Assembly (NCBI GenBank): GCA_964392265.1
Contig: CAYMOS010000004.1
Location: forward strand, 68,337-132,336
Source: an uncultured Candidatus Saccharibacteria bacterium
GTDB lineage: Bacteria; Patescibacteriota; Saccharimonadia; Saccharimonadales; Saccharimonadaceae
Reading direction: 5' to 3'
Length of the DNA stretch: 64,000 nucleotides
Below are positions 26,577-58,495 of the stretch, one piece after another. Below the pieces are notes generated by a model that saw nothing but the letters and a program-made list of their open reading frames with translations, searched no databases and was not told the origin of the DNA. Both the position numbers and the translations under genes were made by a program. Each line of letters begins with the position of its first letter. Position 1 is the first letter of the stretch.

Positions 26577-27562
26577 GATCACCTACCATGACATCAACGC
26601 ATCGCCTTGCCTTCAGCTACCTCGCCGTTATTATGGCCATGTCGCTCTGTTTTAGCGCTGCCATTTATGTCATCATGTCCTCACAGCTTGCCAAGCCACT
26701 GCCACCTCCACACACGAACGATACATCTTACCAACAACCATTTGAGGATTTTGAAAAGCGTATAGCACAGCGCGACGCCGAAACGCGCCTATCAGTGCTA
26801 GGGTCTCTGGCGATCCTTAATGTCGTTGTCGCAGCAGGCGGTACGGCGCTGAGTTACTACCTTGCCCGACGCACGCTCCGACCCATCGAAGCCGCTATGG
26901 ACGCCCAAACCCGGTTCATCAGTGATGCCAGTCATGAGATACGAACCCCTTTGACGGCACTACAAACCAGCAACGAAGTAGCGGCCCGCAAACAGACCAT
27001 CACCGAAGATAAGGCCCGAGACGTTTTTAGACGTAATATCATTGAAATCGAAAAGCTCCGCAGTCTTACTGATGGGCTCCTCAGCCTTGCGACCACCGCA
27101 CCAGTCGACACAACCGCAGAGACGTTTCAGCTGGACACGTTACTCCACGACATTACTGGGCGCCTTCAACCGATTGCCGATCGTAAAAAATGTACGATTA
27201 TCACTACAGCGCCTCCCCAATCTATCACCGCCAATCGTGCGGCAGTCGAACAAATTATGACAATCCTCCTCGACAATGCCATCAAATACTCACCCGATGC
27301 ATCAGATATTGCCCTGACAGCAACCCTCCACAGCACCTCAGCCATACTGACCGTACACGACCATGGTATTGGCATCAGCAAGAAAGATCTTACCCACATC
27401 TTCGATAGATTTTATCGTGCCGATACCGCTCGTACCCGCACCGACACTTCTGGCCATGGCCTAGGCCTGGCAATCGCCAAGCAAACTGCCGATCGATATG
27501 GGTACACTATTTCTTGCGATAGCACGGTGGGTAAGGGATCAACGTTTAGGGTGGAGTTGTGA
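26573..27562 (+). CDS. Sensor histidine kinase (HisKA + HATPase_c)
   Basis: Two TM segments, H-box FISDASHEIRTPLTAL, then N, G1 (DHGIGI) and G2 (GHGLGLAI) boxes. ATGA overlap with the regulator gene. Its stop lies inside the 16-nt repeat. Confidence 0.88.
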   Translation: MRSPTMTSTHRLAFSYLAVIMAMSLCFSAAIYVIMSSQLAKPLPPPHTNDTSYQQPFEDFEKRIAQRDAETRLSVLGSLAILNVVVAAGGTALSYYLARRTLRPIEAAMDAQTRFISDASHEIRTPLTALQTSNEVAARKQTITEDKARDVFRRNIIEIEKLRSLTDGLLSLATTAPVDTTAETFQLDTLLHDITGRLQPIADRKKCTIITTAPPQSITANRAAVEQIMTILLDNAIKYSPDASDIALTATLHSTSAILTVHDHGIGISKKDLTHIFDRFYRADTARTRTDTSGHGLGLAIAKQTADRYGYTISCDSTVGKGSTFRVEL

Positions 27563-27574
27563 TCCCGCGGAGAA
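27559..27574. repeat. Direct repeat GTGATCCCGCGGAGAA (displaced copy of the tRNA-Glu 3' end; left junction of the Glu island)
   Basis: Identical 16-mer at 35369-35384, inside tRNA-Glu. Confidence 0.85.
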
Positions 27575-27688
27575 AGCGGTCACTAAAGCTCCCTATTTCC
27601 GCTCGTTTGTAAAAATATGTCAACACATTTTTACCGCACATCGCTACACGAACTCCTTCGGATTTCGGACTTGCGTCGCAAGTCAACC

Positions 27689-27726
27689 AGAGAAAAAACG
27701 CCACCTGAAGGTGACGTTCTTTCTCT
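27689..27726 (-). terminator. Hairpin terminator downstream of the Shedu-like gene
   Basis: AGAGAAAAAACGCCACC tgaa GGTGACGTTCTTTCTCT, a 17-bp stem with 2 G-U/mismatch positions. U-rich on the minus-strand reading. Confidence 0.55.
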
Positions 27727-27813
27727 GGTGAACCTATCAGAGGCGGACTCTCAAAAATACCAACTAATAAATAATTACAGAGGTAATACGAAGGCTTAGC
27801 CCAAAACGAAAGG

Positions 27814-28989
27814 CTAAAACGGTAAATCATCCAGGTAAGGTACCTGAGAAGATGTAGTTAAGGTATCCTCAGGATCCGAGTGTGATTCCTCTCCATCCTC
27901 TGCATTGGTCTTCTCGCTAAAAATTATCTGGAGCCGCATAAGCAGTTCGTCATAGGTAATAATGGCGAGATCATGCTGACCATGACGAAAATGATTAAAT
28001 GAATCGGCTTCTTTATCAGACAATCTGTTTAGGTTACCTGCTATCAGCACCCCTGTCGGATGGACGCGTCGTAGTTTATGGTCATACTCGGGACCAAGTA
28101 TGCTTTGAAAATGTTCGACGGCTGTACTTATCTGTGTCCGTACCTGAACTACACCGCCTGAGAGGTCTGTATGTATACTATATATCTCATTTGTTCCACC
28201 AGATCCTTTTTCACCCCTGTAGAGTGTGCCTGTAAGCTTACTATCGGGTGTTTTAACATCGACAACAGCAAAGTTTTTTGTACTTTCATCACGGAACAGA
28301 TAGTCAGTTGCCACACCACCGTTACCGCCCCTTCCTTTGGAAGATTTACCACCGAGGTATGTTTCACCTGCTAGCATGTGTACTGGTGCAGAAAAGGCAT
28401 ACTGGAGAATCCAAGGATTGTCTTCAAAAAACTTCTGCCAGTACGCCTCATCACTTGAATAGGATGTCATCGATACTTCGAATTCTCTTACAATATCTTG
28501 TCGATCGATTTGAATTTGAGCTACAGCTAGACGAGTTGCCAAATCAGGGTTCTTCTGGGAAAGATCCTTCCAAAACTCTTCCGAATAACCTTGGTCAATT
28601 ATCTCCTGGATGGCTTTTCGCTTGCTCTTATCATCAATTATTAAAATCTCGTCCTTTTTGGCAACAACGTATTTTTGGTCACCGTATTCGATGCCTTTTC
28701 CTTGAACTTCATAGAGACTAGAGAGCTTACCGTATAGTAGTTTTGTGCCAGCAGTATCTAGGTCAATTGCTACGCCAGCGTCTGCAGGGAGCCGCCTGAA
28801 GTCTACCTCATTGACGTCTGCCCATTCCCCATCTTTTCCAATCTTCTGACGAATGATCTTGCCACGGACTCCACCCACGTGAATGGCGGGACGAAATACA
28901 GTGCGAGTCCTAGCCTCTTGTACTAACACTACATGATCTGCAACAGCAAAACCGCCTTTTAGATAGTGAGTACTAATTTCTTCAGCCAT
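27814..28989 (-). CDS. Shedu-like (SduA, DUF4263) PD-(D/E)xK nuclease defence protein
   Basis: AYWQKFFEDNPWILQYAF block, then ATDYLF ... FAVVDVKTP ... VVQVRTQ, which matches the DUF4263 D...(D/E)xK...Q arrangement. About 190 aa of N-terminal region is unassigned. Confidence 0.65.
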   Translation of the reverse strand: MAEEISTHYLKGGFAVADHVVLVQEARTRTVFRPAIHVGGVRGKIIRQKIGKDGEWADVNEVDFRRLPADAGVAIDLDTAGTKLLYGKLSSLYEVQGKGIEYGDQKYVVAKKDEILIIDDKSKRKAIQEIIDQGYSEEFWKDLSQKNPDLATRLAVAQIQIDRQDIVREFEVSMTSYSSDEAYWQKFFEDNPWILQYAFSAPVHMLAGETYLGGKSSKGRGGNGGVATDYLFRDESTKNFAVVDVKTPDSKLTGTLYRGEKGSGGTNEIYSIHTDLSGGVVQVRTQISTAVEHFQSILGPEYDHKLRRVHPTGVLIAGNLNRLSDKEADSFNHFRHGQHDLAIITYDELLMRLQIIFSEKTNAEDGEESHSDPEDTLTTSSQVPYLDDLPF

Positions 28990-29043
28990 ACTTCTTCTAT
29001 CATAGCTGAGAAGTTAACTTTTTTACTACTGCTTATACTTAAA

Positions 29044-30732
29044 TTAGACGGACAATTCTTCATGAATCTTCGATAACCACACGGCACCGTCAGAAGAACG
29101 ATCCTTGAGTCGTATCAAACTTCGTAGCTTAATCAAAAGCTCTGAACCATCGTTACAGGCATTTGTTTGCCCGGGTAGTAGGGACTGTAGTTGCGTGAAT
29201 GTTAGTGGCACGATATTGAGCTTCATAACTCCACCGAGTTTTTGACTATAGAATTCGGCACCAAAAAATTCGTGTGCCGTAGCGACGTGTACTTGGGGAG
29301 CAGTAAACACGCCAATCACTTCGCTGTCTCGGTTTGCTTCCACGATAGATTTGACGTGGAATTTAACAGCCTCGCCTTCCATATTGAACTGACGTTCATT
29401 ATTGCTAAGTGTAATCTCTGCCGGAATAATAGAATCTTCTTTGTACTTAAACAGCAGGTCGGCAGCACCGCCCTTTGCGTGATGTACAGGGAACAGCTCA
29501 GAATTAATCTTGAAACCACGAGTCTCATTTACGGGGTTCGCTATCGTATTAATTGCGAGAAAGACACGCCAAACGCCCCATTCCGCCCAAGCTGGTAGGT
29601 AGTCGCTACCACCGATGGTTTCTCGATTAGCTATACTCTCAAAAAGGTTCTTGATGTCTTCTATTTGTTCTTCATCTCGCTGCGTTCGATAGAACTGAAT
29701 TTCTTTAAGGCTCGTTAATTCGGTTTCGAGGTCTTCACGACGACGTTTAAGCTGCAATACGCTTGCACCGCTCGTATCTTCAGTAGCAACTTCTGTGCCA
29801 GTGCCAGTTTCTCTGGTCAGTTCATTTAATCGCCCTGTGAGTGTTTCAATATCTTTCGACAGGAAAGAAACGTTATCAGTTGGGAGAGCCGGAAGTGTAG
29901 GGTTGTGGAAATATGACCAAAACTCCTCATCGCTCAAGATTGGCGGTATTCCTGCGTCAACGATCGCATTAGCCAGATTAACTTGGTCTTCTTTTATATT
30001 GAGCGTCTGTCTGCCTATCGTAAACACGCCTGTAATAGCAGAGTAACGAACCGTCGTATCACTGTAGTCCTGTAGGGTGCTAAGCTTTTGCTTAGTCGCT
30101 TCACCGTATAGATAGGCCGCTTTAATAGTAAGGCAATCAAGGAAGAATTTACGCTTTCCAATACGGCCTTGAATTTTGTCTCTTTTGTCTCTGTAGTCTT
30201 CTATAGAATCTACTATTGAAACCGCTTCATCATCATGGGTAGCGGACTGCAAAAACAGGGCAATTTCCTCTTTACCAAGTGGCTTCATATTTCGTTTAAT
30301 CAACTCAACCGCAACGCTCAGTACTAGATAAAATGGATGGATTGAGGCACCCTCTAAGTTGTCTTCTGTAGGAGATGGCAACTGAATCTTAAGCATTTGT
30401 CTTAGCAGTACATCACTCTCTAAGGTGTCGTCGCTTAACAATGCTTCGCCTGCTGGCGTAATGGTAACGACAGGGTTTTCTTTTGTACCTCGCGGCAAAG
30501 CCAATCCTAGCTTATTAAACGCACTAGCCCATTTACGAGCAGACCAGTCTCGGCTACCTGGCTGGTTGGGGTCGCCTTTGATAACACCCGCATTTATCAG
30601 TGCAACGAAGAACTCATTTTGAGTGGGTACATCAAAAGTCTTTCCCTTGAATTCATCACAAAAAACACGCAATGCGTCCTTGATTCGTTCGGGGTTTCTG
30701 ACGGTGGTGTTTCCTAAATTCCAGGTCTTCAT
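29044..30732 (-). CDS. AlwI/BstNBI/PleI/MlyI-family type IIS restriction (or nicking) endonuclease
   Basis: N-terminus TWNLGNTTVRNPERI, mid block DTTVRYSAITGVF and C-terminal block EWGVWRVFLAIN...HHAKGGAADL...PAEITLS...QFNMEGEAV. These resemble that family as I remember it. It lies next to two adenine methylases. Confidence 0.6.
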   Translation of the reverse strand: MKTWNLGNTTVRNPERIKDALRVFCDEFKGKTFDVPTQNEFFVALINAGVIKGDPNQPGSRDWSARKWASAFNKLGLALPRGTKENPVVTITPAGEALLSDDTLESDVLLRQMLKIQLPSPTEDNLEGASIHPFYLVLSVAVELIKRNMKPLGKEEIALFLQSATHDDEAVSIVDSIEDYRDKRDKIQGRIGKRKFFLDCLTIKAAYLYGEATKQKLSTLQDYSDTTVRYSAITGVFTIGRQTLNIKEDQVNLANAIVDAGIPPILSDEEFWSYFHNPTLPALPTDNVSFLSKDIETLTGRLNELTRETGTGTEVATEDTSGASVLQLKRRREDLETELTSLKEIQFYRTQRDEEQIEDIKNLFESIANRETIGGSDYLPAWAEWGVWRVFLAINTIANPVNETRGFKINSELFPVHHAKGGAADLLFKYKEDSIIPAEITLSNNERQFNMEGEAVKFHVKSIVEANRDSEVIGVFTAPQVHVATAHEFFGAEFYSQKLGGVMKLNIVPLTFTQLQSLLPGQTNACNDGSELLIKLRSLIRLKDRSSDGAVWLSKIHEELSV

Positions 30733-30735
30733 AAT

Positions 30736-31779
30736 TTACTTCGCAATAAACAGGTACTCAAGTACCGTGTTCTTATTATCACCTATTTTGTGAGAATGTG
30801 TACCGAAAGAGTACTTATAATCAACCTCGATGACCTCAACGCTCTTTTTATGTTTCTTTAGTAGCTGAATCATCTCGTCTTTATTTGGAATGGAATTTGA
30901 TGAGTACGATACTAGTAAAGTACTGTCCGGGAACTTACCAAATAATTCATCAAATGCTCCGTGTATGGTCGTTTTCGAGCTAAAGCGTGACGGGTGGCTT
31001 TTTATCTTTTTAGTCTTTGTGTGTTCTTGAATTTCAACGTTTTGCCAGTAGGTCATATAACCCTCTACAAAGTGATACCGCCTCGTGTAATCGTTATCAG
31101 AGTGAGGGCTAACGTACGGAGGGTCGATATAAACTAAGTCATAGCCTTTATCTTCCAGTGAAAAGACGTCTTTGTTTTCAGCAAAGCACTGCACGCCGTT
31201 ATCAAAAACTGTATCGTTCCATTCACTTACAGCACGAATAAAATGCTCCTCCAGAGTCATACTCAGGTCTTTACGTCCGTCATCATAACGAAAACCAGTG
31301 TAGGCAAACATACCCCGTGGACGTCGCTTTATACACGCACGACTTACCGCAGCAAGTGCGATTGACTTCCTATATTCGTTACCTAAGAGTTGGATATTCC
31401 ACCATAGCCTATCGAGGAACTTATAGTCATTTTCATCAAAATAAAGCTCTTGAAATTTTTCCTGAATAAATGTGTGCTTACCAGGGTTATTTTTTACTAG
31501 GAATTTTACATCTTCATCAGATAGCGTAATATGACTATTTTCTATCGACGCATTGCCAATCTGATACGCAAATTTCAGGAAATCATTTGACGTAACGCTA
31601 ATGCCCATCTCTTTGAATAGATAGGCAACGCAACCACTACCAGCAAAGGCATCTAACGCCGTTTTTGGGTTAATTTGTTGAATAACTTGAGCAATAACAG
31701 GAATCAGTTTCCTTTTGCTTCCCATATATCGTGTGTTTGGGTATTTTGTTAGAACTTGTTTAGCGTCTTTAGTAGTCAT
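30736..31779 (-). CDS. N6-adenine DNA methyltransferase (D12/Dam-like), 347 aa
   Basis: YMGSKRKLIP, FAGSG (motif I) and YIDPPYV (motif IV). Confidence 0.8.
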   Translation of the reverse strand: MTTKDAKQVLTKYPNTRYMGSKRKLIPVIAQVIQQINPKTALDAFAGSGCVAYLFKEMGISVTSNDFLKFAYQIGNASIENSHITLSDEDVKFLVKNNPGKHTFIQEKFQELYFDENDYKFLDRLWWNIQLLGNEYRKSIALAAVSRACIKRRPRGMFAYTGFRYDDGRKDLSMTLEEHFIRAVSEWNDTVFDNGVQCFAENKDVFSLEDKGYDLVYIDPPYVSPHSDNDYTRRYHFVEGYMTYWQNVEIQEHTKTKKIKSHPSRFSSKTTIHGAFDELFGKFPDSTLLVSYSSNSIPNKDEMIQLLKKHKKSVEVIEVDYKYSFGTHSHKIGDNKNTVLEYLFIAK

Positions 31780-32614
31780 AGTTGGTGACGATAATCTCCG
31801 TTACCGCACCCCTTTTTGACGAATCGCTATTTATCATACGTTTTGCATAGACTGTATCTACGCGCCATTTTTTGTAGAGCTCGCGAGTAAAAGGAGTGTC
31901 TGAATTCGATAGCATGACATAACAGCCTCTATCACTTAACTCATTATACAGTTCAGCCAGCCTCTCGTGGTCGTTTTTGTAAAATTGCTCTTTATTGTAC
32001 CGCTTAAAATCTGAATATACATCTTTTGGGTAATATGGAGGGTCTAGATATATAAAATCTCCAGCCTTGGCGTTAACGAGTACTTTTTCAAAGCTCGCAT
32101 TAAAGACTTTTGTATCACTAAGTGTGTTGCTTGCGGCAAGCAGTCTTTCGGCTTGTACGATATTCGGATTCTTATAGCCTGCGAACGGAACATTGAACTG
32201 TCCACTTTTATTGACACGGTAAAGACCGTTAAAACACGTTCTGTTTAGATAAATAAGCCTTGCAGCTCTCTCGAGAGGAGCTAGTGAATAGGGGTCTTGT
32301 GCTCGGACTTCGTAAAAGAAATCTTTATCATTCACATAGCTTTTTAGTGCCTCTATAAGCTCTTCCGGTTGGTCACGAACAACGTTGTAAGCATTCACCA
32401 GGTCGTCATTGATATCGGCAATCACGGCAGTTTTAGGCGATACTGCAAAATATAAAGCTCCACCACCGATAAATGGCTCAAAGTAGACATTATAGTCTTT
32501 GGGCATTCGCCTCAGAAGTTCGTCTAACAATTGGGTTTTGCCACCAGCCCACTTTAGAAATGGTTGGCTTACCCTCTGTTTGACCGCGTTCTTTCGTGCT
32601 ACTGCTATACCCAT
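31769..32614 (-). CDS. N6-adenine DNA methyltransferase (Dam family), about 281 aa
   Basis: PFLKWAGGKTQLL, EPFIGGGALYF and YLDPPYY. Start moved to the ATG at 32614 (MGIAVARK). 11-nt overlap with the downstream methylase. Confidence 0.8.
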   Translation of the reverse strand: MGIAVARKNAVKQRVSQPFLKWAGGKTQLLDELLRRMPKDYNVYFEPFIGGGALYFAVSPKTAVIADINDDLVNAYNVVRDQPEELIEALKSYVNDKDFFYEVRAQDPYSLAPLERAARLIYLNRTCFNGLYRVNKSGQFNVPFAGYKNPNIVQAERLLAASNTLSDTKVFNASFEKVLVNAKAGDFIYLDPPYYPKDVYSDFKRYNKEQFYKNDHERLAELYNELSDRGCYVMLSNSDTPFTRELYKKWRVDTVYAKRMINSDSSKRGAVTEIIVTNYDY

Positions 32615-32930
32615 CTGCGTTGTATTATATACGGTTATGCTGATAAAGAGTAGTCTTACTTCAGTACACGAGTGGCACACAGATTACTTCGTTTTAATAC
32701 TTTGATCACATAAACATCTGTATTCTTACAGCACTCCACGTAAGGTATTCAAAAGTATACATAAACCTTTAATCTGGGGTAGCTCCCAGATAAGAGGCTG
32801 TCTTTTCGGATACACATATCCCTCACATTCTCCGTGACCCTCTCTTGACCCCTCTGTTATCCTAGCCTCACTTGCTTCGCGCCCTGTTTTGTGGGGATGC
32901 ATAACACAGCAAGAAGAAAGGAGACGTTGT

Positions 32931-33718: not shown

Positions 33719-35407
33719 ATGAACACCCTACTACTCCAGAGTATGGAGCAAGTCACAGGCACTACGGAACGACCACGCATAGCCGTATCGTATGTCCGTG
33801 TGTCTACCAAGCGTCAGGCTGAAAAAGGCGGCACCAGTGAAGGCTTTTCTATCCCAGCACAAAAAGCAGCTAACCAACAAAAGGCAGAGAGTATGGGAGC
33901 CTTTGTCGTCAAAGAGTTCGTTGACCGTGGTGAATCGGCAAAGACCGCTGACCGTCCAGCACTTCAAGAGATGCTGTCATACATCAAGGAGCATAGAGTG
34001 GACTATGTTATCGTGCATAAACTAGACCGTTTAGCTCGTAACCGTGCAGATGATGTCGAGATAAGCAAGCTACTGAGTAGTGTCGATGTGCAGCTTGTGT
34101 CAACGACTGAGTCGTTTGACGACAGCACGCCATCAGGCAGCCTGATGCACGGCATTATGAGTTCAGTGGCAGAGTTCTACAGCAACAACTTAGCCCATGA
34201 AGTCAAGAAAGGTATGCTCCAGAAGGTGCAGAGTGGTGGAACACCGTCGAAGGCACCGCTGGGGTATAAGAATGTCATTAACCGTGACGAACTCGGGCGT
34301 GAGGCTCGGACGGTTATTCTCGACCCAGAGCGTGCCCCACTGGTCGCTAAAGCCTTTCAACTCTACGCCAAAGGTAATAAGACGGTACAACAAGTAGCCG
34401 ACCAACTAGCGGCAGAAGGCTTAACGACCGCCCCTACTCCAAAGATTCCCTCAAAAGCCGTTACCCAGCCTACGCTGAATAAAGTACTGACCAATCCGTA
34501 CTACAAAGGCATGATGCGTTACAACGGAGCACTGTATGAAGGAAGCCACGAAAAGCTTGTCGATGCCCAAACATGGCAACGGGTGCAAGATATTCTGAAG
34601 AGTAACCTACAGGGTGAGCGTACTCGTCAGCACCCCCACTTCTTGAAGAGCACCGTCTGGTGCGGTTCATGTGGTGGGAGATTACTCGTACAAGTCTCGA
34701 AGAACAAGATGGGTAATCACTACCATTACTTTATGTGCAGCAACAGGCACGGTAGACGCAATAACTGCCAACAGCGATCGGTGCAGTCCGATGAGGTTGA
34801 GCGACGAATTGAAGAATGCTACAAGGATATCTACCTGAGCGAATCCCAAAAAGAAAGCCTCAAAACGCTACTTTATGGGGAATTAGATGAACGTCGCAAA
34901 GAAGAACTATCTTCACAAGGCAACATACGACTCGAAAAGGATAAGATAGCGAGAAAGCAGAAAAAGCTGCTTGAAGCACACTATGCTGACGCTATTCCGC
35001 TCGACCTACTCAAGCAAGAGCAAGCAGCCCTTGAGCGAGCTATGGCCGACATTGAGACGAGGTTCTCGGCATTAGAGCAGAATTATACAGACGTAAAGAA
35101 GAATCTCGACATGGTGCTAGAGCTGGCAGTAAATGCCAAAAAGCTCTACAAGATAGCGCCCGAACACATCAAGCGAATGCTTAACCAAGTATTCTTCGAG
35201 AAGGTGTTGGTACACGCCCATGATGATGTCAAACCAAAGAAAACACCAGTCTTTGAAGCGCTACTATCCGCACAAACAAAACAGCTCGCTACTTCTAGCG
35301 AGCTGTTTGGCCAATCACTGCCGCAAAAGATGGTTTCTTATGCTCGGTGTTTGAGTAAGCAACTTTTGGTGATCCCGCGGAGAATCGAACTCCGATTGCC
35401 AGGATGA
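33719..35407 (+). CDS. Large serine recombinase/integrase (resolvase + recombinase + zinc-ribbon domains)
   Basis: IAVSYVRVSTKRQ catalytic-Ser block, VHKLDRLARN, PLGYKN, NPYYKGMMRYNGALYEGSHEKLV and CGSCGG...FMCSNR...C ribbon. AAGGAGGA RBS before the ATG at 33719. The last 13 codons are antisense tRNA-Glu sequence. Confidence 0.88.
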   Translation: MNTLLLQSMEQVTGTTERPRIAVSYVRVSTKRQAEKGGTSEGFSIPAQKAANQQKAESMGAFVVKEFVDRGESAKTADRPALQEMLSYIKEHRVDYVIVHKLDRLARNRADDVEISKLLSSVDVQLVSTTESFDDSTPSGSLMHGIMSSVAEFYSNNLAHEVKKGMLQKVQSGGTPSKAPLGYKNVINRDELGREARTVILDPERAPLVAKAFQLYAKGNKTVQQVADQLAAEGLTTAPTPKIPSKAVTQPTLNKVLTNPYYKGMMRYNGALYEGSHEKLVDAQTWQRVQDILKSNLQGERTRQHPHFLKSTVWCGSCGGRLLVQVSKNKMGNHYHYFMCSNRHGRRNNCQQRSVQSDEVERRIEECYKDIYLSESQKESLKTLLYGELDERRKEELSSQGNIRLEKDKIARKQKKLLEAHYADAIPLDLLKQEQAALERAMADIETRFSALEQNYTDVKKNLDMVLELAVNAKKLYKIAPEHIKRMLNQVFFEKVLVHAHDDVKPKKTPVFEALLSAQTKQLATSSELFGQSLPQKMVSYARCLSKQLLVIPRRIELRLPG

Positions 35408-37579: not shown

Positions 37580-37587
37580 AAGGAGTG

Positions 37588-39252: not shown

Positions 39253-39265
39253 CCCTATGACGTGT

Positions 39266-50212: not shown

Positions 50213-50228
50213 AAAGTAGGCATTAGAC

Positions 50229-50762: not shown

Positions 50763-51130
50763 TGACAAAGCAGAAACAGAGCCTAAAACTACCGATATTT
50801 TTGATTGTTGCGCCCATAGCTGGATTGATACTCTCGGTAATTTTGTACGCGATTGTTAATTTTATCGTTGCAAGTTCAATGCCAGAAACAACGCCTAGCA
50901 TTTCTGAGGGCGCAGGCATAGCGCAAGGAGTAGACGCGCAGAGCGATTTGTATGGTGAAACGCCCGTATTCCAGACGATTGCAAATGTCGTACTATTCCT
51001 ACTTGGTAGCATTAGTTTATTGGCATTTGTACCATGTCTTGTAGTCGGTATTATTATGATAAATAGACGACGCAGCGCGCAAACATCATCAGAAGATAAT
51101 ACATCAAGAGATTGGGGAGATTTAGAATAA
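50762..51130 (+). CDS. Hypothetical 2-TM membrane protein (122 aa) ending in DWGDLE
   Basis: Start at ATG 50762 (MTKQKQSLKLPIFLIV). Its stop overlaps the next start (TAATG). Confidence 0.55.
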   Translation: MTKQKQSLKLPIFLIVAPIAGLILSVILYAIVNFIVASSMPETTPSISEGAGIAQGVDAQSDLYGETPVFQTIANVVLFLLGSISLLAFVPCLVVGIIMINRRRSAQTSSEDNTSRDWGDLE

Positions 51131-51936
51131 TGCAACTACCCCACTCGGAAACACGCGAAAGCTACACGCGACATGTCAAAGTCATTGAGGCAAATCTAAA
51201 AGACGCAACATCAGGCGATCTTGACACCGCGCTACTCGCACAAGTCCAAAAGCGGCTTGATGCACTCGCCGATAAATATCAATACAGCGAGGAAATCGGG
51301 AAAGCAAGATACAAACTTTACGAGCTACAGGCGCTTGTTCACTATTTCAGCGGTTACGATGATGATGCGCTAGACTTTATCAACCAAGCGATTGAAATGC
51401 GCGGCGATAGCTACGCGCGAGCCGAAAAACTAAAAACACAATTACTAACAAAGGCGCACGCTACCAATCCGAAAATAATGACCAAGCAACAGCGCCGCAA
51501 AAAACTTATAGGACTTGAGGGCTGGCTGGCGTTTTTTGTTGTTAGTGTTTCAATTTCAACACTGGCTTATGCTATCGCGGCTATTTTTAGTATCATCAAT
51601 CTAAACAACCTACCGAATACCGCCGACGCGTACGCGTCGGGTCTATTAAGTCCATACTACAGTTTCCTTGCGTTCGCGGCTGTCGTAATGGTCGGCGCTG
51701 GAATATGGCTTATCGTCCTACTGGCAAAATGGAAGAGGCTTGCTCGTTGGGTTGGTATCGCGTTTCTGTCATCTGCCGTCGTGATAGCTTTCATTGATTA
51801 TATGTGGTACGCAGACTTACTGACTAAACTAACAGGGCTTGGGCCGAATAGCGCAAGTGGTGGTACATTTGTTGCAATTCTCTGGATTATTTACCTTTGT
51901 GTTTCTCGGAGAGTAAAAAGGACGCTAACAAAATGA
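51130..51936 (+). CDS. Helical (TPR-like) N-terminal domain fused to a DUF2569-like 4-TM domain (268 aa)
   Basis: YKLYELQALVHYFSGYDDDALDFINQAIEMRGDSY looks like a TPR-type helix pair. GLEGWLAFFVV plus three more helices resemble DUF2569. Confidence 0.55.
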   Translation: MQLPHSETRESYTRHVKVIEANLKDATSGDLDTALLAQVQKRLDALADKYQYSEEIGKARYKLYELQALVHYFSGYDDDALDFINQAIEMRGDSYARAEKLKTQLLTKAHATNPKIMTKQQRRKKLIGLEGWLAFFVVSVSISTLAYAIAAIFSIINLNNLPNTADAYASGLLSPYYSFLAFAAVVMVGAGIWLIVLLAKWKRLARWVGIAFLSSAVVIAFIDYMWYADLLTKLTGLGPNSASGGTFVAILWIIYLCVSRRVKRTLTK

Positions 51937-52306
51937 CACAGCACAAAGAAAACTATTCATGGGTGTATATCGGACTTGCCGTACTTATTGGCGGCGCGAT
52001 TTTGTACTTTCTCTTTTTTCGTCTGGCTCTGGCTATGTAAAAGTAAAATACCGTGATGACAAAGTGGACGTATCGGCAAGCAACTTTACACCGCTAGACA
52101 AAACCGACGCAACCGTTAAGGGCGCATGGTACGACAGCGGCAACGAGTATATGATTATAAAACTCGGTAGCACCTATTATCATTACTGCGGTATGCCAAG
52201 CAGCGCTTGGCGCGACTTTTCGTCGGCAAGTTCACCATATCGGGCATATCAAGACGACATCAAAGGCAATTTTGACTGTCGCGTAAATCCTGTGCCGAGA
52301 TACTAG
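51933..52306 (+). pseudogene. KTSC-domain protein with N-terminal TM anchor, interrupted by a frameshift at a T6 run
   Basis: Frame 1 (ATG at 51933, ATGA overlap with the upstream stop) reads MTQHKENYSWVYIGLAVLIGGAILYFLFF and stops at 52040. The -1 frame continues SSGSGYVKVKY...GAWYDSGNEYMIIKLGSTYYHYCGMPSSAWRDF (KTSC-like). One extra T in the run at 52014-52019 would join the two. Confidence 0.55.
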
Positions 52307-52308
52307 CC

Positions 52309-52623
52309 ATGAAAAATAATATTTCAATCAACAAATACTTACTTGTCGGGCTTATCGCCGCCGCGTTAGCAGGCGGCGTTTACGCTGGCTTTTACTACAC
52401 TAATCAACATTATCAAAACAAAGAGGCTCGCGCACTACGCGAGGAAGCCGAAATATACGAGAAAAACCTGATTTGCGAGGCGCGCGTTCAGCGCGGCAAA
52501 ACAGGAGAGATTAAAAGCGACTATTTCATTTTTGAGCGAAGCGCAAAAAAGGAAGATTGCGAAAAGTTTATAGATTATAAAAACCTACCAGACGACACAG
52601 AGGGCGCTTGGTTAGGCTTTTAG
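52309..52623 (+). CDS. Hypothetical N-terminally anchored small protein (104 aa)
   Basis: TM helix YLLVGLIAAALAGGVYAGFYY followed by a charged soluble part. Confidence 0.5.
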   Translation: MKNNISINKYLLVGLIAAALAGGVYAGFYYTNQHYQNKEARALREEAEIYEKNLICEARVQRGKTGEIKSDYFIFERSAKKEDCEKFIDYKNLPDDTEGAWLGF

Positions 52624-52845
52624 TGGGCAATGTGCGACTGCCAACGGCATAAAGGCGGCGTTAGCCGTCTTTATATTTCTAGCGAAGCTACGCTATATCT
52701 GGTGTGAGTACACCAGATATAGCGTGTATTTCATACTTTCGGTTTATTTGCTGCTTGCTCGTTAGTCGTTACACTTGCAGGACTAGGGCGCGTAGCGCGT
52801 CGGCTTTGCCGACTAAAGCCACGCCGCCTCCACCGCTTGCGGTGG

Positions 52846-53117
52846 GCGAACCACCAGAAACACCCTTTACAACTAAAAAAGAAATTCGGCGGGGGGGAAA
52901 ATCTCAAAAAATCAAAGGGTTTTTCTGGTGGGGCGCAGCACGGCTTGCCGTGCTAGGCGGCGCGGCTGGAGATCGCTATTGCTTTTTCGCCTGCTTACCT
53001 CGCTTACGCTCGGCACGCGGCGTATTCCACAGATTGTCGGTTGGTTGCCACAGGGGTGGTGTTTTTGGCTCTGGTGCGGTAAAATAGGTTCTAGCGAAGA
53101 TAAAAATTCGCTCCAAA
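52846..53117. repeat. Inverted repeat B, right arm (272 nt), ending in CTCCAAA
   Basis: Exact reverse complement of 49169-49440. Confidence 0.9.
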
Positions 53118-53152
53118 GTAATAATCCCTCCTCTGTGAGGGATTATTACTTT
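53118..53152 (+). terminator. Displaced native terminator of tRNA-Lys
   Basis: GTAATAATCCCTC ctctgt GAGGGATTATTAC TTT, a perfect 13-bp stem, directly after the CTCCAAA repeat. Confidence 0.7.
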
Positions 53153-54801
53153 ATATGTGGTATACTAATATCTAGATTTGAGCACCCGTAGCTCAGTGGA
53201 TTAGAGCATTTGTCTTCGGAACAAAGGGTCGTACGTTCGAATCGTACCGGGTGTACCAAATGTAAATCAGAGGACTCTTCGGGGTCCTTTTTGATTGCTG
53301 CCAATCTGTAAAGGATACTCAAAGTGCCCGTTCCAAAATCATTCTGCTTGCAGTCCCATTCCAGTCCCTCAGGGTAGATGATCTTCTGAAATAGCATCCG
53401 CGACTCGTAGTCTGCGTCCCTCCAGAGCTTTGCTGGGGTCATTATGAAGTTACAGACGTACTCTATCGTGCTTTCACTGATGCGCTGCACCTTTTCTAGT
53501 CTCTCTATATCTTCATCGTAGCTTATACGCTCCTTATTCTTGCCTGTTTCGTATATGTCGTAGGCTTCCTGCGATATCTTTTCGTCTACGAGCTTCTGGA
53601 GGGCTTTCTGGATGTCCTTATCTATTGCAGCTAGCTTTGCCCTCGTAGCCTTTAGATCGCTATTGACGTCTGCCAATTTCTTCTGCGCCGTATTGCGGAT
53701 AACTGCCTTGAAAAGCTTGATACCTGCCTCTGTCGGCGTGATCGTCTGTAAAAGATCATGAAACTTCTCGTGCATAGTCTCTATGTTGACGGAGGACATA
53801 GCCTTACATTCGCTACAGTGGTATCGGGGAGAGCTTTTGCCAGAGCCATTCGTCGGTGCAGAGCCTCGGATCTTGTTTTTGCAGCCAGAGCATACCAAGA
53901 ACGCCTTAAGTGGGTATAGGTAGTCGTTCTCTTCCTTGCGCTCGTAGACTGGCTTATTGCCAGCAAGTATTCTCTGATTCTTCTCGTAGGTCTCCATTGT
54001 GATGAGCCCATCCCATTGCGCCTTTATCATCTTGTCATCTGTCAGTCGCTTGCCGCAGACATAGCCAGCGTATAAAGGGTTGCGTAGTATGCGGTTCATC
54101 TGATTGAATGAAAATCTTTCACTATCACTGTCTGGTTGTAACTTGATATCCCCTGCGTAATCCACGAGACCCGTAACAGTTAGATCGCCAACACTAAACC
54201 TATTAAGAACATTCGTAAGCTTCTCGGCTCTATCGTTTGCTGTGTCGGGAGTGAGCGATAGGCGTGCTTTTGTGCCTTTCTCTCCTGAGGGTACTTTAAG
54301 GGGCAGAAATCCATAGGGAGCCTTAGATTGCCACCAACCCTGCCGTGCTACTGTTTTCATGTTATCTTTGACGGTCTCTGCCTTGACGTTGTTGTCGAGC
54401 TGATGGAACGCGATGGATATATTTTGGATAAACCTACCGTACGGCGTCTCGTCTATATTCTCCTGCGTTGACCTGAGGAGTACACCGTTACCTAGGAGTG
54501 CGGGAGCAATCGTCGTAGAGAACGACTGAAGGTCTCTTGATATACGACTTGTGTTGTAGACGATCACGTAGTCTATCTCGCCTCGATGTGTGCGAATATC
54601 AGTAAGCATCTCCTGTAGCTTCTCTCGATTGGCTGTAGAGGCAGATACGCCCTCATCTGAGTACCAGCCAACAACTTCAACGTTATTGGCTGTTGCATAG
54701 CGAAGAATAGCCTGCTGTTGATTAGTCAGCGATGCGCCATCTACCTGCTCCTCGGTAGATACTCTGATGTAGCCGTAGGCATACTTTTTGAGGTCTTTCA
54801 T
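53146..54801 (-). CDS. Large serine recombinase
   Basis: YGYIRVSTEEQ catalytic-Ser block, YNTSRISRD, PYGFLPL, NPLYAGYV and CSGC...YHCSEC ribbon. Start placed at ATG 54801 (MKDLKKY, with GGAG 8 nt upstream). The ORF tail runs antisense through the whole tRNA-Arg. Confidence 0.85.
   Translation of the reverse strand: MKDLKKYAYGYIRVSTEEQVDGASLTNQQQAILRYATANNVEVVGWYSDEGVSASTANREKLQEMLTDIRTHRGEIDYVIVYNTSRISRDLQSFSTTIAPALLGNGVLLRSTQENIDETPYGRFIQNISIAFHQLDNNVKAETVKDNMKTVARQGWWQSKAPYGFLPLKVPSGEKGTKARLSLTPDTANDRAEKLTNVLNRFSVGDLTVTGLVDYAGDIKLQPDSDSERFSFNQMNRILRNPLYAGYVCGKRLTDDKMIKAQWDGLITMETYEKNQRILAGNKPVYERKEENDYLYPLKAFLVCSGCKNKIRGSAPTNGSGKSSPRYHCSECKAMSSVNIETMHEKFHDLLQTITPTEAGIKLFKAVIRNTAQKKLADVNSDLKATRAKLAAIDKDIQKALQKLVDEKISQEAYDIYETGKNKERISYDEDIERLEKVQRISESTIEYVCNFIMTPAKLWRDADYESRMLFQKIIYPEGLEWDCKQNDFGTGTLSILYRLAAIKKDPEESSDLHLVHPVRFERTTLCSEDKCSNPLSYGCSNLDISIPHIK
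53182..53258 (+). tRNA. tRNA-Arg (anticodon UCG), CCA encoded
   Basis: GCACCCG TA GCTC AGTGGATTA GAGC A TTTGT CTTCGGA ACAAA GGGTC GTACG TTCGAAT CGTAC CGGGTGT A CCA (G1-U72 wobble). Preceded by a TGTGGTATACT extended -10-like element. Confidence 0.88.
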
Positions 54802-54823
54802 AGTTGACTCCATTATAGTATAC

Positions 54824-54964
54824 CTACTGGTTTTCTGGAACTTTTACATTAAGCAATAACAGTACGCTTATCTGTTCCATAAAGTTAAGCAGTTTTATTA
54901 GGTCATCATCGCTGATGTCCTCTTGTGTTGCGCCCAGAATCTTCCGAGCCTCTTTGATGGTCAT
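54824..54964 (-). CDS. Candidate 46-aa protein upstream of the recombinase (MTIKEARKILGATQEDISDDDLIKLLNFMEQISVLLLLNVKVPENQ)
   Basis: Too short for the ORF track. AAAGGAGG RBS 5 nt before the ATG at 54964. Confidence 0.4.
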   Translation of the reverse strand: MTIKEARKILGATQEDISDDDLIKLLNFMEQISVLLLLNVKVPENQ

Positions 54965-55068
54965 ATAGACCTCCTTTCTTTTAGTGTTATAGAAAGGAGT
55001 ATAAAAGGTGGAAATCGCCTGACAGTCGCCACTTTGGCGATAATGTAGAGATGCCCGACTAGCAGGGG

Positions 55069-55803
55069 CTAATCGGAGTGTAGCATATAGCTCTCGTCTG
55101 AGTTTAGGGCGAGCCGTATGCGTCTTTCTCTATTGATCTTAGGCAATAGTCCATTCAACTTACTCACCACTTTATGCACGTCTTGGTCTAACTTATGTGT
55201 CCCATCTATCTCGCCCCATAGATTGCGCTTGATACTCCCTAGGGTTAGTGATCGAGTGCGGCTCTCTAGAAACTGTACGAGAAGTTTTTTCGTCTGCGTA
55301 GACAAGCCAACTAGCTCCGTGCCGTTTAATAGCACTTCGCCAGTCGGCTTTACTTCGTATTCTCCGTAGGTAGCGCTTTGCGTAGATCTTTCGTGCCTAT
55401 CTATCGCTGCACCTATGCGTGTCTTCTCGTCTCTTAGGATGTCTCTTACTTCTTTTGCTGCCTGTCTTCTTGCGTGGAATCCTGCAATAATATCTGTACC
55501 GTCAATGGGTGCTAGCGCCTCTGAGAGAGCGATGTGAATGTCTCGCATAGCACAGGCGGCTATAGTCTCATCTACGACTGCGCTCCATAATCGGAGGCGT
55601 TCTAGTATGGTTTCATTTGAAGGGCTTGTATCTATGGCATGTTTAAGCCCTGAAGACTCCTCTAGTAGCTGTCCTAGTGTTTGTGCCGTACGATCAAGTG
55701 CTTCGAGGTCTTCTACGTAGGTAGGGATGTTGGGCATAGTATGTTCACTATAGCACGGCACAGGATAATCTTGAGAGGTGCTGTTATAGGTTGAATAGCG
55801 CAA
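55069..55803 (-). CDS. Hypothetical protein with C-terminal OmpR-type winged-helix-like domain
   Basis: C-terminal LLNGTELVGLSTQTKKLLVQFLES...LWGEIDG...VHKVVSKLNGLL resembles a Trans_reg_C domain. The N-terminal about 140 aa are unassigned. The start is uncertain (55803 or ATG 55737), and neither has a clear RBS. Confidence 0.5.
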   Translation of the reverse strand: MRYSTYNSTSQDYPVPCYSEHTMPNIPTYVEDLEALDRTAQTLGQLLEESSGLKHAIDTSPSNETILERLRLWSAVVDETIAACAMRDIHIALSEALAPIDGTDIIAGFHARRQAAKEVRDILRDEKTRIGAAIDRHERSTQSATYGEYEVKPTGEVLLNGTELVGLSTQTKKLLVQFLESRTRSLTLGSIKRNLWGEIDGTHKLDQDVHKVVSKLNGLLPKINRERRIRLALNSDESYMLHSD

Positions 55804-55978
55804 AGACGATGAGGAGTTCGGGCAGAACGATCCATATAGGTATTACGGATATAATGCTCCATCCCGAGCCTATGAGGTTGATGATTGCCCAGATACCAGC
55901 CAAATAAGCTATTACATGTACTATAGCCAATACAGCTCCGACTGTCGCACCTGCTGCTTCTTTGATATTGTTGTTCAT
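55784..55978 (-). CDS. Small hydrophobic 2-TM protein (64 aa)
   Basis: Almost entirely hydrophobic after MNNNIKEAAG. Confidence 0.45.
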   Translation of the reverse strand: MNNNIKEAAGATVGAVLAIVHVIAYLAGIWAIINLIGSGWSIISVIPIWIVLPELLIVFALFNL

Positions 55979-56036
55979 TATCTTATTACTCCCTGTACGC
56001 TACGATTATTCACCGTAAGCCCTTGATACTCGTACT

Positions 56037-57647
56037 TCACTTATTTATTGCCTCAGCTTCAAGTGCCTCTGCATCTCTCATATAATCTTTTAATGCCTCC
56101 CTGAGGTGGGGCGCATATTGCCTGGATGTCTCCTCTATCTTACGGAGTGCCTCCTTCCGCTGCTCAATCTCTGTGTCGTAGGAAAAGCTTAGCGACTCCA
56201 GAAAGATGACTTTACCTCTTTCGTTCAGATGACTTTCGTCTGTCGATAGCAAATCTACTACGGATATATCTTGATCGCTCGTGTAGTTCAGGAATACCTT
56301 GATTACAACGGAGTCGTTTTCCGGATTGTCCGCCTTGAGACACGGCTCTTTTTTGTCCGAATCTTTTGACAGAGCCTCTATTTTGATGCGATTCTCTTCG
56401 TTAGTCTCATTGAAGTTTACTCCAGCGCTGCTCATCCCCCTGCCGTAGAGGGCATCTTTTCTGTTATCTATCGATGCCTTGCAAGTTACTGCTACTGCAC
56501 TTCTCAGGGCTTGCCTTTCTTTTTCGTCTGCGTTTTTGTTGATGGATGTAACAACCCAAAGTGTGGCTATCGATATAATGATGACCAATATGATCACTCC
56601 TACTGTGGACTTACTGCCATATACAGGCTTTTCTGGCCTACGCAAAGAGTTAGCTCCATGAGATAGCACCGCCGTGTCTTGATTGGATATCGTTAGATTG
56701 TGCATACCTTCTTGCCATATGCTCACGATTTGTTTCGCCACAGCTGTCTTACCGCGAGCCATAACTTCATCTGCTATCTGAAATACTGCCTCTTCGGCAT
56801 TATCATATTGTTGCTGAAAGTCATCGAGAGTCATCTCCTCCTCTTTATATAGCCCGACATTTAGCGTGAGCATATGATTCTTGGCGACTATATCTAGATC
56901 TAGAGCGTTATCTACTAAAAGCTTTCTATATCTACTTAGATAATACGTCTGCTTAGTTGTGAGGTGCCCGTCTTGGCTAAGGCTCTCCGTAAAGTTAAGA
57001 ATTGCACGAGATAGCAATCCTGTCGTGAACGCAGCTATTACTCGTGAGTTTTGGTTAGGAGTCAGGTGAAACATAAGGTGTGATGTGTATTTGAGTGATT
57101 TCTTGACGATACGTATTTGCTTGCCGACTAACTCCGCTGGCTCGTCATCGTACAAGACAGCGGACTGCCGTCTGAGCTGGCTGCCTGTCTGCTTTATAGA
57201 TTTTGAGGGCATCGCACACAAGACGAGTGTGATAATACTAAGAGGGGGAACAATAAGCAGAAGTACCCACAAAGCAGAATGCTTAGCATCTTCTAGTCTG
57301 CGCATTGTCATAGCTAAGATTGGCAATAGAGATACCACTAGATATATAGTCACAAGAAAAGTTGTCAAATCAATAAAGTACAAGAATGAAGCAATTACAA
57401 TATGAATAATGTACGCACCCCAGAATCCAGAGCGTGAAGTAGTGCCCTTTGCACTAAAGCCTCTTGCCCACATATCAAGGTATGCTCCTCGCTCCAGCTC
57501 CGTGTCGTGCTGATTGTCTTGACGCTCTGAGTGTTTATTGACATCTTCTATATCTTCAAGCAGCAGGTCTATATCGTCCATAGAATTATTTGCTGGCGAT
57601 GAGTCCCTGAAAGTGTTAAGCATTAAATTGTCATCGTGTTTTCCCAT
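56037..57647 (-). CDS. DUF805-domain membrane protein with long C-terminal extension (about 536 aa)
   Basis: FSAKGTTSRSGFWGAYIIH ... MTMRRLEDAKHSALWVLLLIVPPLS matches the DUF805 pattern (GR.sR..FW ... RRLHD.G.S.WW). A further TM helix (VGVIILVIIISIATLWVV) separates two unassigned domains. Start placed at ATG 57647 after GGGAGAAGAGAG. Confidence 0.6.
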   Translation of the reverse strand: MGKHDDNLMLNTFRDSSPANNSMDDIDLLLEDIEDVNKHSERQDNQHDTELERGAYLDMWARGFSAKGTTSRSGFWGAYIIHIVIASFLYFIDLTTFLVTIYLVVSLLPILAMTMRRLEDAKHSALWVLLLIVPPLSIITLVLCAMPSKSIKQTGSQLRRQSAVLYDDEPAELVGKQIRIVKKSLKYTSHLMFHLTPNQNSRVIAAFTTGLLSRAILNFTESLSQDGHLTTKQTYYLSRYRKLLVDNALDLDIVAKNHMLTLNVGLYKEEEMTLDDFQQQYDNAEEAVFQIADEVMARGKTAVAKQIVSIWQEGMHNLTISNQDTAVLSHGANSLRRPEKPVYGSKSTVGVIILVIIISIATLWVVTSINKNADEKERQALRSAVAVTCKASIDNRKDALYGRGMSSAGVNFNETNEENRIKIEALSKDSDKKEPCLKADNPENDSVVIKVFLNYTSDQDISVVDLLSTDESHLNERGKVIFLESLSFSYDTEIEQRKEALRKIEETSRQYAPHLREALKDYMRDAEALEAEAINK

Positions 57648-58264
57648 CTCTCTTCTCCCTCTCGTCATGGCGATAATGGTAATTGAATACGATACGATGT
57701 CAACAAAAAAGGACACCGCGAGGTGTCTTATGCCATATCACAGCTAGATTTTACTCAGGACTGCTTACGCGGTGTCCTTTAATGAAGTAAAATCCGCCAC
57801 TAGGTGGTGATTCGCTTTGATATGGTATAAGACTTTTTCATCATACCTCCTACTAAGTAGGCGTGGCAACTGGTGCTGTAGATTCACCGCTTGAGACAGG
57901 CACTATCATTATGTTCTATGTGGTACATATCTTACTCTTACCTCCTGTTATGAAGTGGCAAGGTGGTCAGGATGCTGCTGCGTTAGTGTAGTAGGTATGC
58001 AGCTACATGGTGAGAGGTACTATCTATCTATTCATGGAAATCAACGCACTATCATGCGTGTACTGCGTAGGTATCATGGGGGGACTCCCCACCTATCTAG
58101 CTAATCAATCTACCAGTGTTATTGCGCCCGTTTTATGCCCCTGAGAGGCTCTGAGAGGGAGTTGTATGGCGTCCAAATGCGTGAGATGGGTTCATACTCA
58201 TCTTTTGCGCTAGTCTTACATCCTAACAGGGGTGAAGAATCGCTAGGAGAGCTGCTGCTGTAGC

Positions 58265-58293
58265 TTGGGTATAGGAGTGTATCGTGGTATAAT
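58265..58293 (+). promoter_or_regulatory. Outward-facing promoter near the right end of the Arg island (TTGGGT, 17 nt, TGgTATAAT)
   Basis: The same GTGGTATAAT extended -10 decamer as the tRNA-Lys promoter. No ORF with an RBS follows before the island end. Confidence 0.5.
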
Positions 58294-58485
58294 ATACGTA
58301 GTGCAAGTGAGGGTATGTAGTGATAAGCACTCGACCTGTCATGGTAGCCCTGATGAGTTAGTAGAGAGTGTAGTTCTATCCCCTACGGGGATGTATATCT
58401 ACAACTACTTACAGAGGTAGTCTAGTGATGAGGTCTTTAACCCTATACATATCTGCTATGAGGTCGTGCCAATGCAGTTCTACGA

Positions 58486-58495
58486 GGTGTACCAA
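58486..58495. repeat. Direct repeat GGTGTACCAA (displaced tRNA-Arg 3' end; right junction)
   Basis: Identical to 53250-53259. The preceding about 25 nt (GGTCGTGCCAATGCAGTTCTACGA) loosely resemble the tRNA T-arm region. Confidence 0.65.

Follow-up and report, generated by a model that had tools for sequence, protein, structure and literature searches.

Large serine recombinases (LSRs) characterised as integrases mostly use attB sites located in protein-coding or intergenic DNA. According to the Islander paper (PMC4383910), serine integrases were not known to target tRNA genes; mycobacterial prophage surveys give tRNA sites for tyrosine integrases only, and the LSR survey of Durrant et al. (PMC10083194) makes no mention of tRNA and classes targets by protein genes only. 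Among the tycheposons of Prochlorococcus (Hackl et al., bioRxiv 10.1101/2020.12.28.424599), 27 out of 937 elements carry an LSR in place of a tyrosine recombinase. Judged by the description of its islands, the closest precedent appears to be the ssrA/DsiB system of Dehalococcoides, with DsiB being a CcrB-like integrase (PMC3146451). Here we describe three genomic islands from a stretch of 64,000 nucleotides (nt) of an uncultured Candidatus Saccharibacteria bacterium (assembly GCA_964392265.1, contig CAYMOS010000004.1, positions 68,337 to 132,336), referred to below as the window. Very probably these are three independent islands of 7.8 kb (Glu), 5.8 kb (Lys) and 5.2 kb (Arg), each inserted at the 3' end of the respective tRNA gene by its own LSR, which we call Glu-, Lys- or Arg-type accordingly.

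The three tRNA genes are all that ARAGORN finds in the window, and Rfam concurs with scores of 61-68 bits. Each LSR open reading frame (ORF) is convergent with its tRNA gene and approaches it from the 3' side. The antisense overlap amounts to 41 nt for tRNA-Glu and 71 nt for tRNA-Lys, and for tRNA-Arg it covers the entire gene and 36 nt more. In the Glu-type LSR the final 13 codons and the stop are antisense to the 3' half of tRNA-Glu, the stop falling in the anticodon loop, and the Lys-type LSR reads antisense across a stretch designated arm X and then through those 71 nt of tRNA-Lys. An earlier note on this DNA, prepared without database searches, had described three LSR ORFs overlapping intact tRNA genes in antisense, which both programs and the ORF coordinates confirm. 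The direct repeats of tRNA 3' ends it had reported (16, 7 and 10 nt) are likewise present. The 16-nt exact repeat of the Glu island (27559-27574 and 35369-35384) is significant by itself. Neither CTCCAAA of the Lys island (7 nt, at 47316-47322 and 53111-53117) nor the 10-nt exact repeat of the Arg island (13/15 over 53245-53259 and 58481-58495) is; the former was accepted as att core because two perfect inverted repeats terminate exactly on it, the latter because an empty site validates it.

All three proteins contain the PF00239 catalytic domain, with YVRVST, YVRKST and YIRVST blocks, and PF07508 (DBD1). The zinc ribbon PF13408 scores above the cut-off in the Glu-type LSR and below it in the Lys-type one (22.6 vs 25.3 bits); it is undetected in the Arg-type LSR, despite a CxxC...CxxC block at the zinc-ribbon-aligned position. 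The profile searches proposed in the earlier note hence return Resolvase and Recombinase for three LSRs and Zn_ribbon_recom for two, and, together with pairwise identities of 21-28%, they agree with its picture of proteins alike in domains yet diverged.

For the Arg island the insertion itself is observed. Contig L003, originating from an unrelated sequencing run, corresponds at 100% identity to window positions 53088-53259 joined to 58486-64000; the 10 nt GGTGTACCAA belong to both matches, and tRNA-Arg is intact. The island is occupied in L001 and L002 and empty in L003, with flanks 100% identical, and is a true insertion polymorphism. A search of related genomes for empty tRNA sites, advised previously, was thereby successful for the Arg island, in a near-identical strain, and yielded none for Glu or Lys. 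After excision, antisense reading of attR would give the Arg-type integrase an alternative tail, LVHLVELHWHDLIADMYRVKDLITRLPL (reconstructed ORF), and tails matching it are present in homologues P0149, P0163 and P0168.

The same placement beside tRNA genes recurs in relatives of the three LSRs. Those of the Glu-type (44-95% identity, one genome per species) amounted to 80 loci, 7 of them too short on sequence and 73 evaluable; the ORF overlaps an antisense tRNA or tmRNA in 66 of the latter, one more has such a gene within 200 nt and 6 are without tRNA. Targets comprise 21 anticodons and tmRNA (in five relatives), and the hosts are Saccharibacteria, many Actinomycetota, Lachnospiraceae and Oscillospiraceae, the closest relative (95% identity) residing in a Candidatus Saccharibacteria genome. 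Among Lys-type relatives taken from metagenome contigs (48-83% identity), antisense tRNA was found in 57/63 evaluable loci, with 30 anticodons; both families together use more than 40. The Arg-type family is smaller and mostly from Saccharimonadota. In most of its ~75 homologues the tail translates tRNA antisense, members ending in peptides such as MVISPGIEPGLPG, and one locus, L191, was checked at the DNA level: the tRNA there is tRNA-Glu(ctc), a 12-nt repeat lies 6.6 kb upstream, and the cargo consists of AAA_21 + RloB. Chance association expected from tRNA density is below 1%. The results support the view that tRNA adjacency is not coincidental and that the proteins are true LSRs.

All three LSRs share one reading frame on the tRNA, with tTG|Gnn over CCA and then (F/I/L)-E over the T-loop TTCGAA; therefore the overlap is visible in protein databases as antisense tails. 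The Glu-type consensus C-terminus is LS(K/N)xLLV-xx-RGFEP, with Glu invariant. A single lineage of tRNA-targeting recombinases, as the earlier note would have it, is not shown by these data: targeting of tRNA holds, and it is distributed over three families, 21-28% identical, which read the tRNA in the same frame.

The position of the junction can be read from these tails. Glu-type LSRs that are 90-96% identical bear different tRNA-encoded residues directly after 'LLV' (TTGGTG, the antisense of CACCAA), and therefore the junction lies at the CCA end. For the Lys-type, half-site profiles of 29 elements were anchored on the last tRNA nucleotide. Comparing attL (tRNA|X) with the internal attP (Y|X), only (N)CCA is common to the left of X (n=29), and the discriminator mostly co-varies between element and target, exceptions being L155 and L172. 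With (N)CCA alone shared and the discriminator not always co-varying, the Lys-type exchange is therefore placed within CCA. Farther out, the T-loop GGTTC starts at -24 in 25 of the 29 attL B arms, and the P arm contains, after an A-tract, a conserved mimic (G)GTTCGAGC which starts at -28, 4 bp farther out than GGTTC. This offset agrees with the DBD2 shift reported for SPbeta integrase: in cryo-electron microscopy DBD2 (the zinc ribbon) lies 4 bp nearer the centre on attB than on attP half-sites, the shift being 4-5 bp in general, with contacts around -19/-23 (bioRxiv 10.1101/2025.01.03.631226). By this analogy, the tRNA T-arm would fit the role of the attB DBD2 motif.

Conserved non-tRNA tails ('..WN..', 'ART.F') were considered as a functional C-terminal extension restored on excision, and for the Lys-type family the idea was dropped. 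In Lys-type homologues whose ORF reads into the P arm, 'ART.F' is the translated GCTCGAAC, antisense of GTTCGAGC and the A-tract, and is thus a P-arm DNA motif; therefore conservation of the tail needs no protein-level explanation.

The tRNA keeps nearly all of its own sequence, the last 0-5 nt, the trailer and the terminator coming from the element. The new terminators are a hairpin at 35308-35279(-) for Glu, hairpins in and after X for Lys, and for Arg a hairpin from 53271 onward, GGACTCTTCGGGGTCC-T5, read straight from the sequence. The replacement tRNA 3' end attributed earlier to each island is borne out to the extent that the elements contribute the final few tRNA nucleotides together with a new terminator hairpin; very little of the tRNA is swapped, and the change concerns mainly the 3' trailer and terminator.

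The evidence shows attP to be situated inside the 3' end of the integrase ORF, which consequently runs antisense into the tRNA after integration. Exchange takes place at the discriminator/CCA end, and the native trailer is pushed to the opposite end of the island. We propose that the B half-site of attB would consist of the acceptor 3' strand and the T-arm, DBD2 reading the universal T-loop GGTTC ~19-23 bp from the centre, and the P-arm mimic GTTCGAGC, 4 bp farther out, would supply the attP/attB asymmetry that serine integrases need. Such a half-site is common to all tRNAs and tmRNA, and it would therefore let the families spread over dozens of tRNA species.

The Lys island has a further property, which the earlier note overlooked: an inverted third copy of the core at 49169-49175, surrounded by perfect inverted repeats of 105 nt (47316-47420 with 49071-49175) and 272 nt (49169-49440 with 52846-53117), which overlap on the 7-nt core. 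The resulting site S2 is positioned between the integrase promoter region and the cargo, and also between attL (tRNA-core-X) and attR (Y-core-Z). Arm Y holds the T-loop mimic GGTTCTAG, 22-28 nt ahead of the CCA-equivalent base. The layout recurs in an independent element, L101, which carries an ABC transporter as cargo, targets tRNA-Thr-ggt and has an integrase 82% identical; its perfect repeats measure 106 and 269 nt and share 6 nt. The double-att layout is also seen in L102-L105 and L110. Repeats bracket the integrase gene in 35/40 evaluable Lys-type relatives (median 137 nt, 80-100% identity), in 25 out of 31 loci the arm nearer the tRNA reaches 3-6 nt into it, and a second repeat pair occurs in 10 of the 18 relatives having sufficient upstream DNA. 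Bracketing inverted repeats were found in 0/67 Glu-type loci. The retained inverted attP between integrase gene and cargo appears to be a new feature.

In L110 the integrase stands between Y-core-X and its inverse (arms 89% identical) and no tRNA is present, which is the form expected of a free circle with two inverted attP sites. The tRNA of L115, L141, L151 and L183 is on the same strand as the integrase, 200-410 nt upstream of its start; L115 targets tRNA-Lys-ctt like the window element and is collinear with the window's internal attP side. Therefore, the integrase segment exists in both orientations relative to the tRNA. Two orientations could arise by integration via either attP copy, or by in-cis recombination of attL with the inverted attP, and the latter reaction (B|P' with P|P') yields once more the two types of site from which it starts. 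The window cargo itself occurs in opposite orientation in L012, where short reads cannot resolve orientation across the 272-nt repeat. At one tRNA-Leu(cag), L140 (7630-14946) contains a tandem array, tRNA|X2...Y2|X1...Y1|Z, in which both Lys-type elements have their own inverted internal attP and the integrase of the distal one runs on into the P arm of the other; elements therefore do insert at a site that is already occupied (B|P').

Two observations concern the range of the Lys element. In L012 (5417-5493) a 99%-identical integrase is found on tRNA-Lys with anticodon ttt, not ctt, and the same element therefore uses both lysine isoacceptors. In L011 (3790-7736) the window Lys cargo is followed by the Y arm, the core and an X-like stretch (85-93%, ~66 nt), and then by unrelated housekeeping genes (NUDIX, YajQ and L33); this may be either the same cargo at another site or another host's native tRNA trailer resembling the P' arm.

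Regarding the Lys-type elements, their free form would be a circle with two inverted attP sites, and their integrated form is attL - integrase - inverted attP - cargo - attR, with the integrase segment found either way round. Our joint interpretation is tentative, and we regard it as possible rather than probable: Lys-type elements would be self-inverting and need only the B half-site and CCA core, together with any right half-site, and the three LSR families would use the T-arm/CCA end as a portable landing pad. In trans, attP would recombine with the occupied site (B|P') and build tandem arrays. In cis, the element's own inverted attP would be used, so that the integrase gene would flip beside the tRNA without a directionality factor, its substrates being regenerated.

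Several points weigh against the reading of three islands each inserted at a tRNA end by its own LSR. Comparison of half-sites narrows the central dinucleotide down to CCA or the discriminator and no further. The Lys-type P arm alone has a clear T-loop mimic; by eye, none was seen in the one Glu and the one Arg element of the window. The sequence of the displaced Glu copy is ...ATCACAAC (in a longer stretch, ...GGGATCACAAC) and not ...ATCACCA, which suggests either a native gene without encoded CCA or an exchange point at A73-C74. Junctions of excised circles were not seen for any element of the window itself, and no recombination directionality factor (RDF) was recognised among the cargo ORFs, RDFs being too diverse to exclude one. 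No empty site turned up for either the Glu or the Lys island: contigs sharing the histidine-kinase gene that flanks the Glu island all enter the island and break at a hairpin, a metagenome contig scan with the reconstructed empty tRNA-Glu junction gave no match, and exact-protein look-ups of host genes beside the two islands gave contigs that were occupied or truncated, or no contig at all, with no informative flank contig for Lys. The current mobility of these two islands is therefore inferred.

It would accordingly fit several of these points if the Glu and Lys islands were immobile relics, integrated once and no longer excisable: neither an empty site nor an excised junction was found for them and no directionality factor was recognised. 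We consider it unlikely, as neither integrase ORF is disrupted, the Lys repeats show no mismatch, and close relatives of both integrases (80-96% identity) occupy other tRNAs or occur in other genomes. Less probable still is that the Lys-type LSR acts mainly as a site-specific invertase which flips its own gene and/or the cargo as a phase-variation switch, the integration at the tRNA being old and fixed. Inverted repeats ending on the core do bracket both integrase gene and cargo, both orientations of each exist in different samples, and B|P' x P|P' restores the same site types, allowing freely reversible flipping. However, use of 30 different tRNAs with varied cargo, the tRNA-free form and the tandem arrays require repeated integration, and both orientations were never met within one strain, short reads being blind to cargo orientation across the 272-nt repeat.

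There is very little room for the view that the tRNA genes are cargo of the elements, as in many phages, and not chromosomal targets. The integrase ORF spans the entire tRNA-Arg and 71 nt of tRNA-Lys, which would suit it, but L003 retains tRNA-Arg without the island, the free form L110 is tRNA-less, near-identical integrases are found on different tRNAs, and the repeat arm stops just inside the tRNA in most loci (25/31, as given above); we rejected this reading on the evidence of L003, L110 and the varied targets. An equally small chance is left to the inverted attP of the Lys island being an assembly artefact which mixes integrated and excised forms. Its arms are 100% identical and short-read contigs break there, but L012 and L101-L105, assembled independently by different assemblers from different samples, show the unique junctions a|X' (49070/49071) and Y'|c (49440/49441) as well, and diverged arms in many relatives (80-98%; L110 89%) prove two physical copies. 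This explanation was rejected on these two grounds. Finally, that resolvases or invertases stand by chance beside tRNA genes, with chance repeats and no tRNA integration, the case which the earlier note named as refuting it and for which only the singly non-significant 7- and 10-nt repeats speak, is refuted almost beyond doubt by the Recombinase domain in all three proteins (with a zinc ribbon by Pfam in two and the CxxC...CxxC block in the Arg-type), by the precise Arg empty site and by overlap in ~90% of evaluable relatives from three families against the <1% expected.

Table 1. Features of the three islands (positions in the window; two start positions are separated by a slash)
Feature	Position	Strand	Remarks
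Glu island attR	27559..27574	-	displaced copy of tRNA-Glu positions 58-73 (P arm + core); 16-nt exact repeat
Glu cargo, defence island	27814..32680	-	Pfam SduA_C/N, RE_AlwI, MethyltransfD12; GC lower, 40-44%
Shedu SduA	27814-28989	-	Pfam
AlwI-type restriction endonuclease	29044-30732	-	Pfam RE_AlwI
Two D12/Dam-class DNA methyltransferases	30736-31779, 31769-32680	-	Pfam MethyltransfD12
Glu-type LSR, P0001, 562 aa	33689/33719..35407	+	Pfam Resolvase 5e-35, Recombinase, Zn_ribbon_recom
Replacement terminator hairpin for tRNA-Glu	35279..35308	-	element-borne, inside integrase ORF; 13-pair terminator-like site
tRNA-Glu(ttc)	35367-35441	-	hybrid attL; core shared with attR 35369-35384; ARAGORN, Rfam
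tRNA-Lys(ctt)	47244-47320	+	site S1, attL = B|P', core CTCCAAA 47316-47322; ARAGORN, Rfam
Lys-type LSR, 535 aa	47250..48857/48878	-	Pfam Recombinase 3e-18, Resolvase 1e-14, Zn ribbon 1e-4
Arm X (core + P' arm)	47316..47420	+	antisense to last ~35 integrase codons; 105-nt inverted repeat with 49071-49175
Hairpin terminator after arm X	47420-47439		terminator scan
Site S2, intact inverted attP (minus strand: Y-core-X)	49071..49440	-	core 49169-49175; inverted repeats I1 and I2
Lys cargo 'c'	49441..52845	+	six small, mostly membrane proteins: DUF4190, DUF2569, KTSC, unknowns
Arm Y + core (site S3, attR = P|B')	52846..53117	+	272-nt perfect inverted repeat with 49169-49440
Z, native hairpin downstream of tRNA-Lys (B' arm)	53115..53152	+	16-nt perfect inverted repeat I9; now 5.8 kb from tRNA
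tRNA-Arg(tcg)	53182-53258	+	attL of Arg island, core GGTGTACCAA 53250-53259; ARAGORN, Rfam
Arg-type LSR, P0121, 551 aa	53146..54801/54813	-	Pfam Resolvase 2e-29, Recombinase 9e-7
Arg island proper, 5,226 bp	53260..58485		missing from empty-site contig L003
Arg cargo: 244-aa unknown; DUF805 membrane protein	55069-55803; 56037-57716		
Arg island attR: P arm + core (58486-58495)	58411..58495	+	
Native tRNA-Arg terminator (B' arm)	58502..58522	+	terminator scan; then murB at 58561 (MurB Pfam domains)

Coordinates of all features are collected in Table 1. The displaced tRNA-Glu fragment contains the stop (27560-27562) of a convergent host histidine-kinase gene (26573-27562), and therefore, before insertion, a convergent overlap of a few nt would have existed between this gene and tRNA-Glu. 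On the other side of tRNA-Glu, between it and a large DUF11/CLIPPER-repeat surface protein (39541-42594), a patch of 65-68% GC (36600-39300) stands in a genome of ~48% GC; long ORFs lie on either strand of this patch (e.g. 37585-39252, 555 aa) without any Pfam match, and it may be of foreign origin, a high-GC Actinomycetota host being a conceivable source.

With regard to cargo, L191 (5173-8237), from another Saccharimonadota genome, encodes an AAA_21 ATPase together with a protein having an RloB domain, a combination typical of anti-phage systems. As do the Shedu and AlwI genes of the Glu island, it suggests that LSR islands at tRNA ends are carriers of defence genes. A different context was noticed in L106 (10001-15678; JGI 3300056623), where the Arg-type P0128, whose tail is one of the conserved non-tRNA tails mentioned above, belongs to a cluster of three LSRs with an Mrr-like nuclease and a helix-turn-helix (HTH) protein and no tRNA is near; here the enzyme family serves an element of another kind. 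At ~50% identity, the Glu-type family is present in Saccharibacteria as well as in Actinomyces oris, Actinomyces sp. oral taxon 170, Propionibacterium and Leifsonia. Some cultivated oral Saccharibacteria are epibionts on bacteria of the Actinomyces group (Actinomycetota), and exchange of elements between epibiont and host is conceivable.

Among the large island ORFs scanned there was no Phage_integrase match, the recombinases there being all of the serine type, and no tyrosine recombinase, phage structural or conjugation gene, the ORF 50744..51130 (128 aa) and those below ~100 aa being unscanned. Pfam scans of the island ORFs gave no second recombinase and no ParB/Mom. Scans of viral contigs with single Lys- and Arg-type proteins returned no relatives, which is consistent with islands lacking phage genes.

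Obtained results indicate that three LSR families, from Saccharibacteria, Actinomycetota and Firmicutes, systematically land on the CCA ends of tRNA and tmRNA genes, a supposed preserve of tyrosine integrases. If the landing-pad interpretation is true, the T-arm/CCA end opens every tRNA and tmRNA gene to serine integrases. The targeting rule would be a readable one, the T-loop serving as the outer attB motif and a mimic standing 4 bp farther out in attP, and it gives a testable model of how a serine integrase may switch targets while one half-site stays. Island-finding software will miss or mis-assign such islands because their repeats are so short. The islands are also identified as vehicles for defence systems (Shedu, AlwI restriction-modification, AAA_21 + RloB) in the tiny genomes of Saccharibacteria, and the families common to Saccharibacteria and Actinomycetota raise the question of exchange. 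The retained inverted attP, an unexplained architecture, could reveal a new way of regulating or moving elements.

Compared with described systems, the likeness to the Dehalococcoides ssrA islands and DsiB (PMC3146451) lies in an LSR of ~540 aa beside attL on the reverse strand, an integrase gene that contains the repeat of the RNA 3' end, a small size with cargo, tandem arrays and a tRNA-like 3'-end target. In contrast to them, the targets here are ordinary tRNA genes with more than 40 anticodons, the junction is at the CCA end and theirs is in the T-loop, there is neither a DsiA-like small partner recombinase nor a ParB/Mom module, and an inverted second attP is not described for ssrA islands. 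Islander-type islands of tyrosine integrases are alike in having an intact tRNA at one end and a displaced 3' fragment at the other, a tRNA-adjacent integrase, defence or accessory cargo and tandem accretion; they differ in that the enzyme family here is unrelated (serine) and the repeats, which end at CCA, are much shorter (6-16 nt). The tycheposons (bioRxiv 10.1101/2020.12.28.424599) are also tRNA-associated cargo elements, with LSRs as a minority feature and different hosts.

With phiC31, Bxb1, A118/LI, TP901-1 and SPbeta SprA the islands share the domain architecture and a short common core (16, 7 and 10 nt in the window), and with SPbeta, in the Lys-type family, the DBD2 motif 4 bp nearer the centre in attB than in attP. 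Unlike those characterised integrases, they have a tRNA 3' end as attB, attP inside the integrase ORF, and integration into an occupied site (B|P'). Archaeal integrases of the SSV1 type are tyrosine recombinases with attP inside the integrase gene, which integration truly partitions. In both cases integration alters the integrase ORF via an internal attP; here only the last ~15-45 codons change. The Lys-type LSR, with its 535 aa, falls outside the Hin/Gin class of serine invertases, which are small and have a C-terminal HTH, and with its inverted sites and both orientations it may act in a switch-like manner outside that family. Some such islands may already be catalogued, e.g. in TIGER (Mageeney 2020). 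The elements as such are of a known kind, LSR integrative elements; what is new is that whole families target the t(m)RNA CCA end and that one of them retains an inverted attP.

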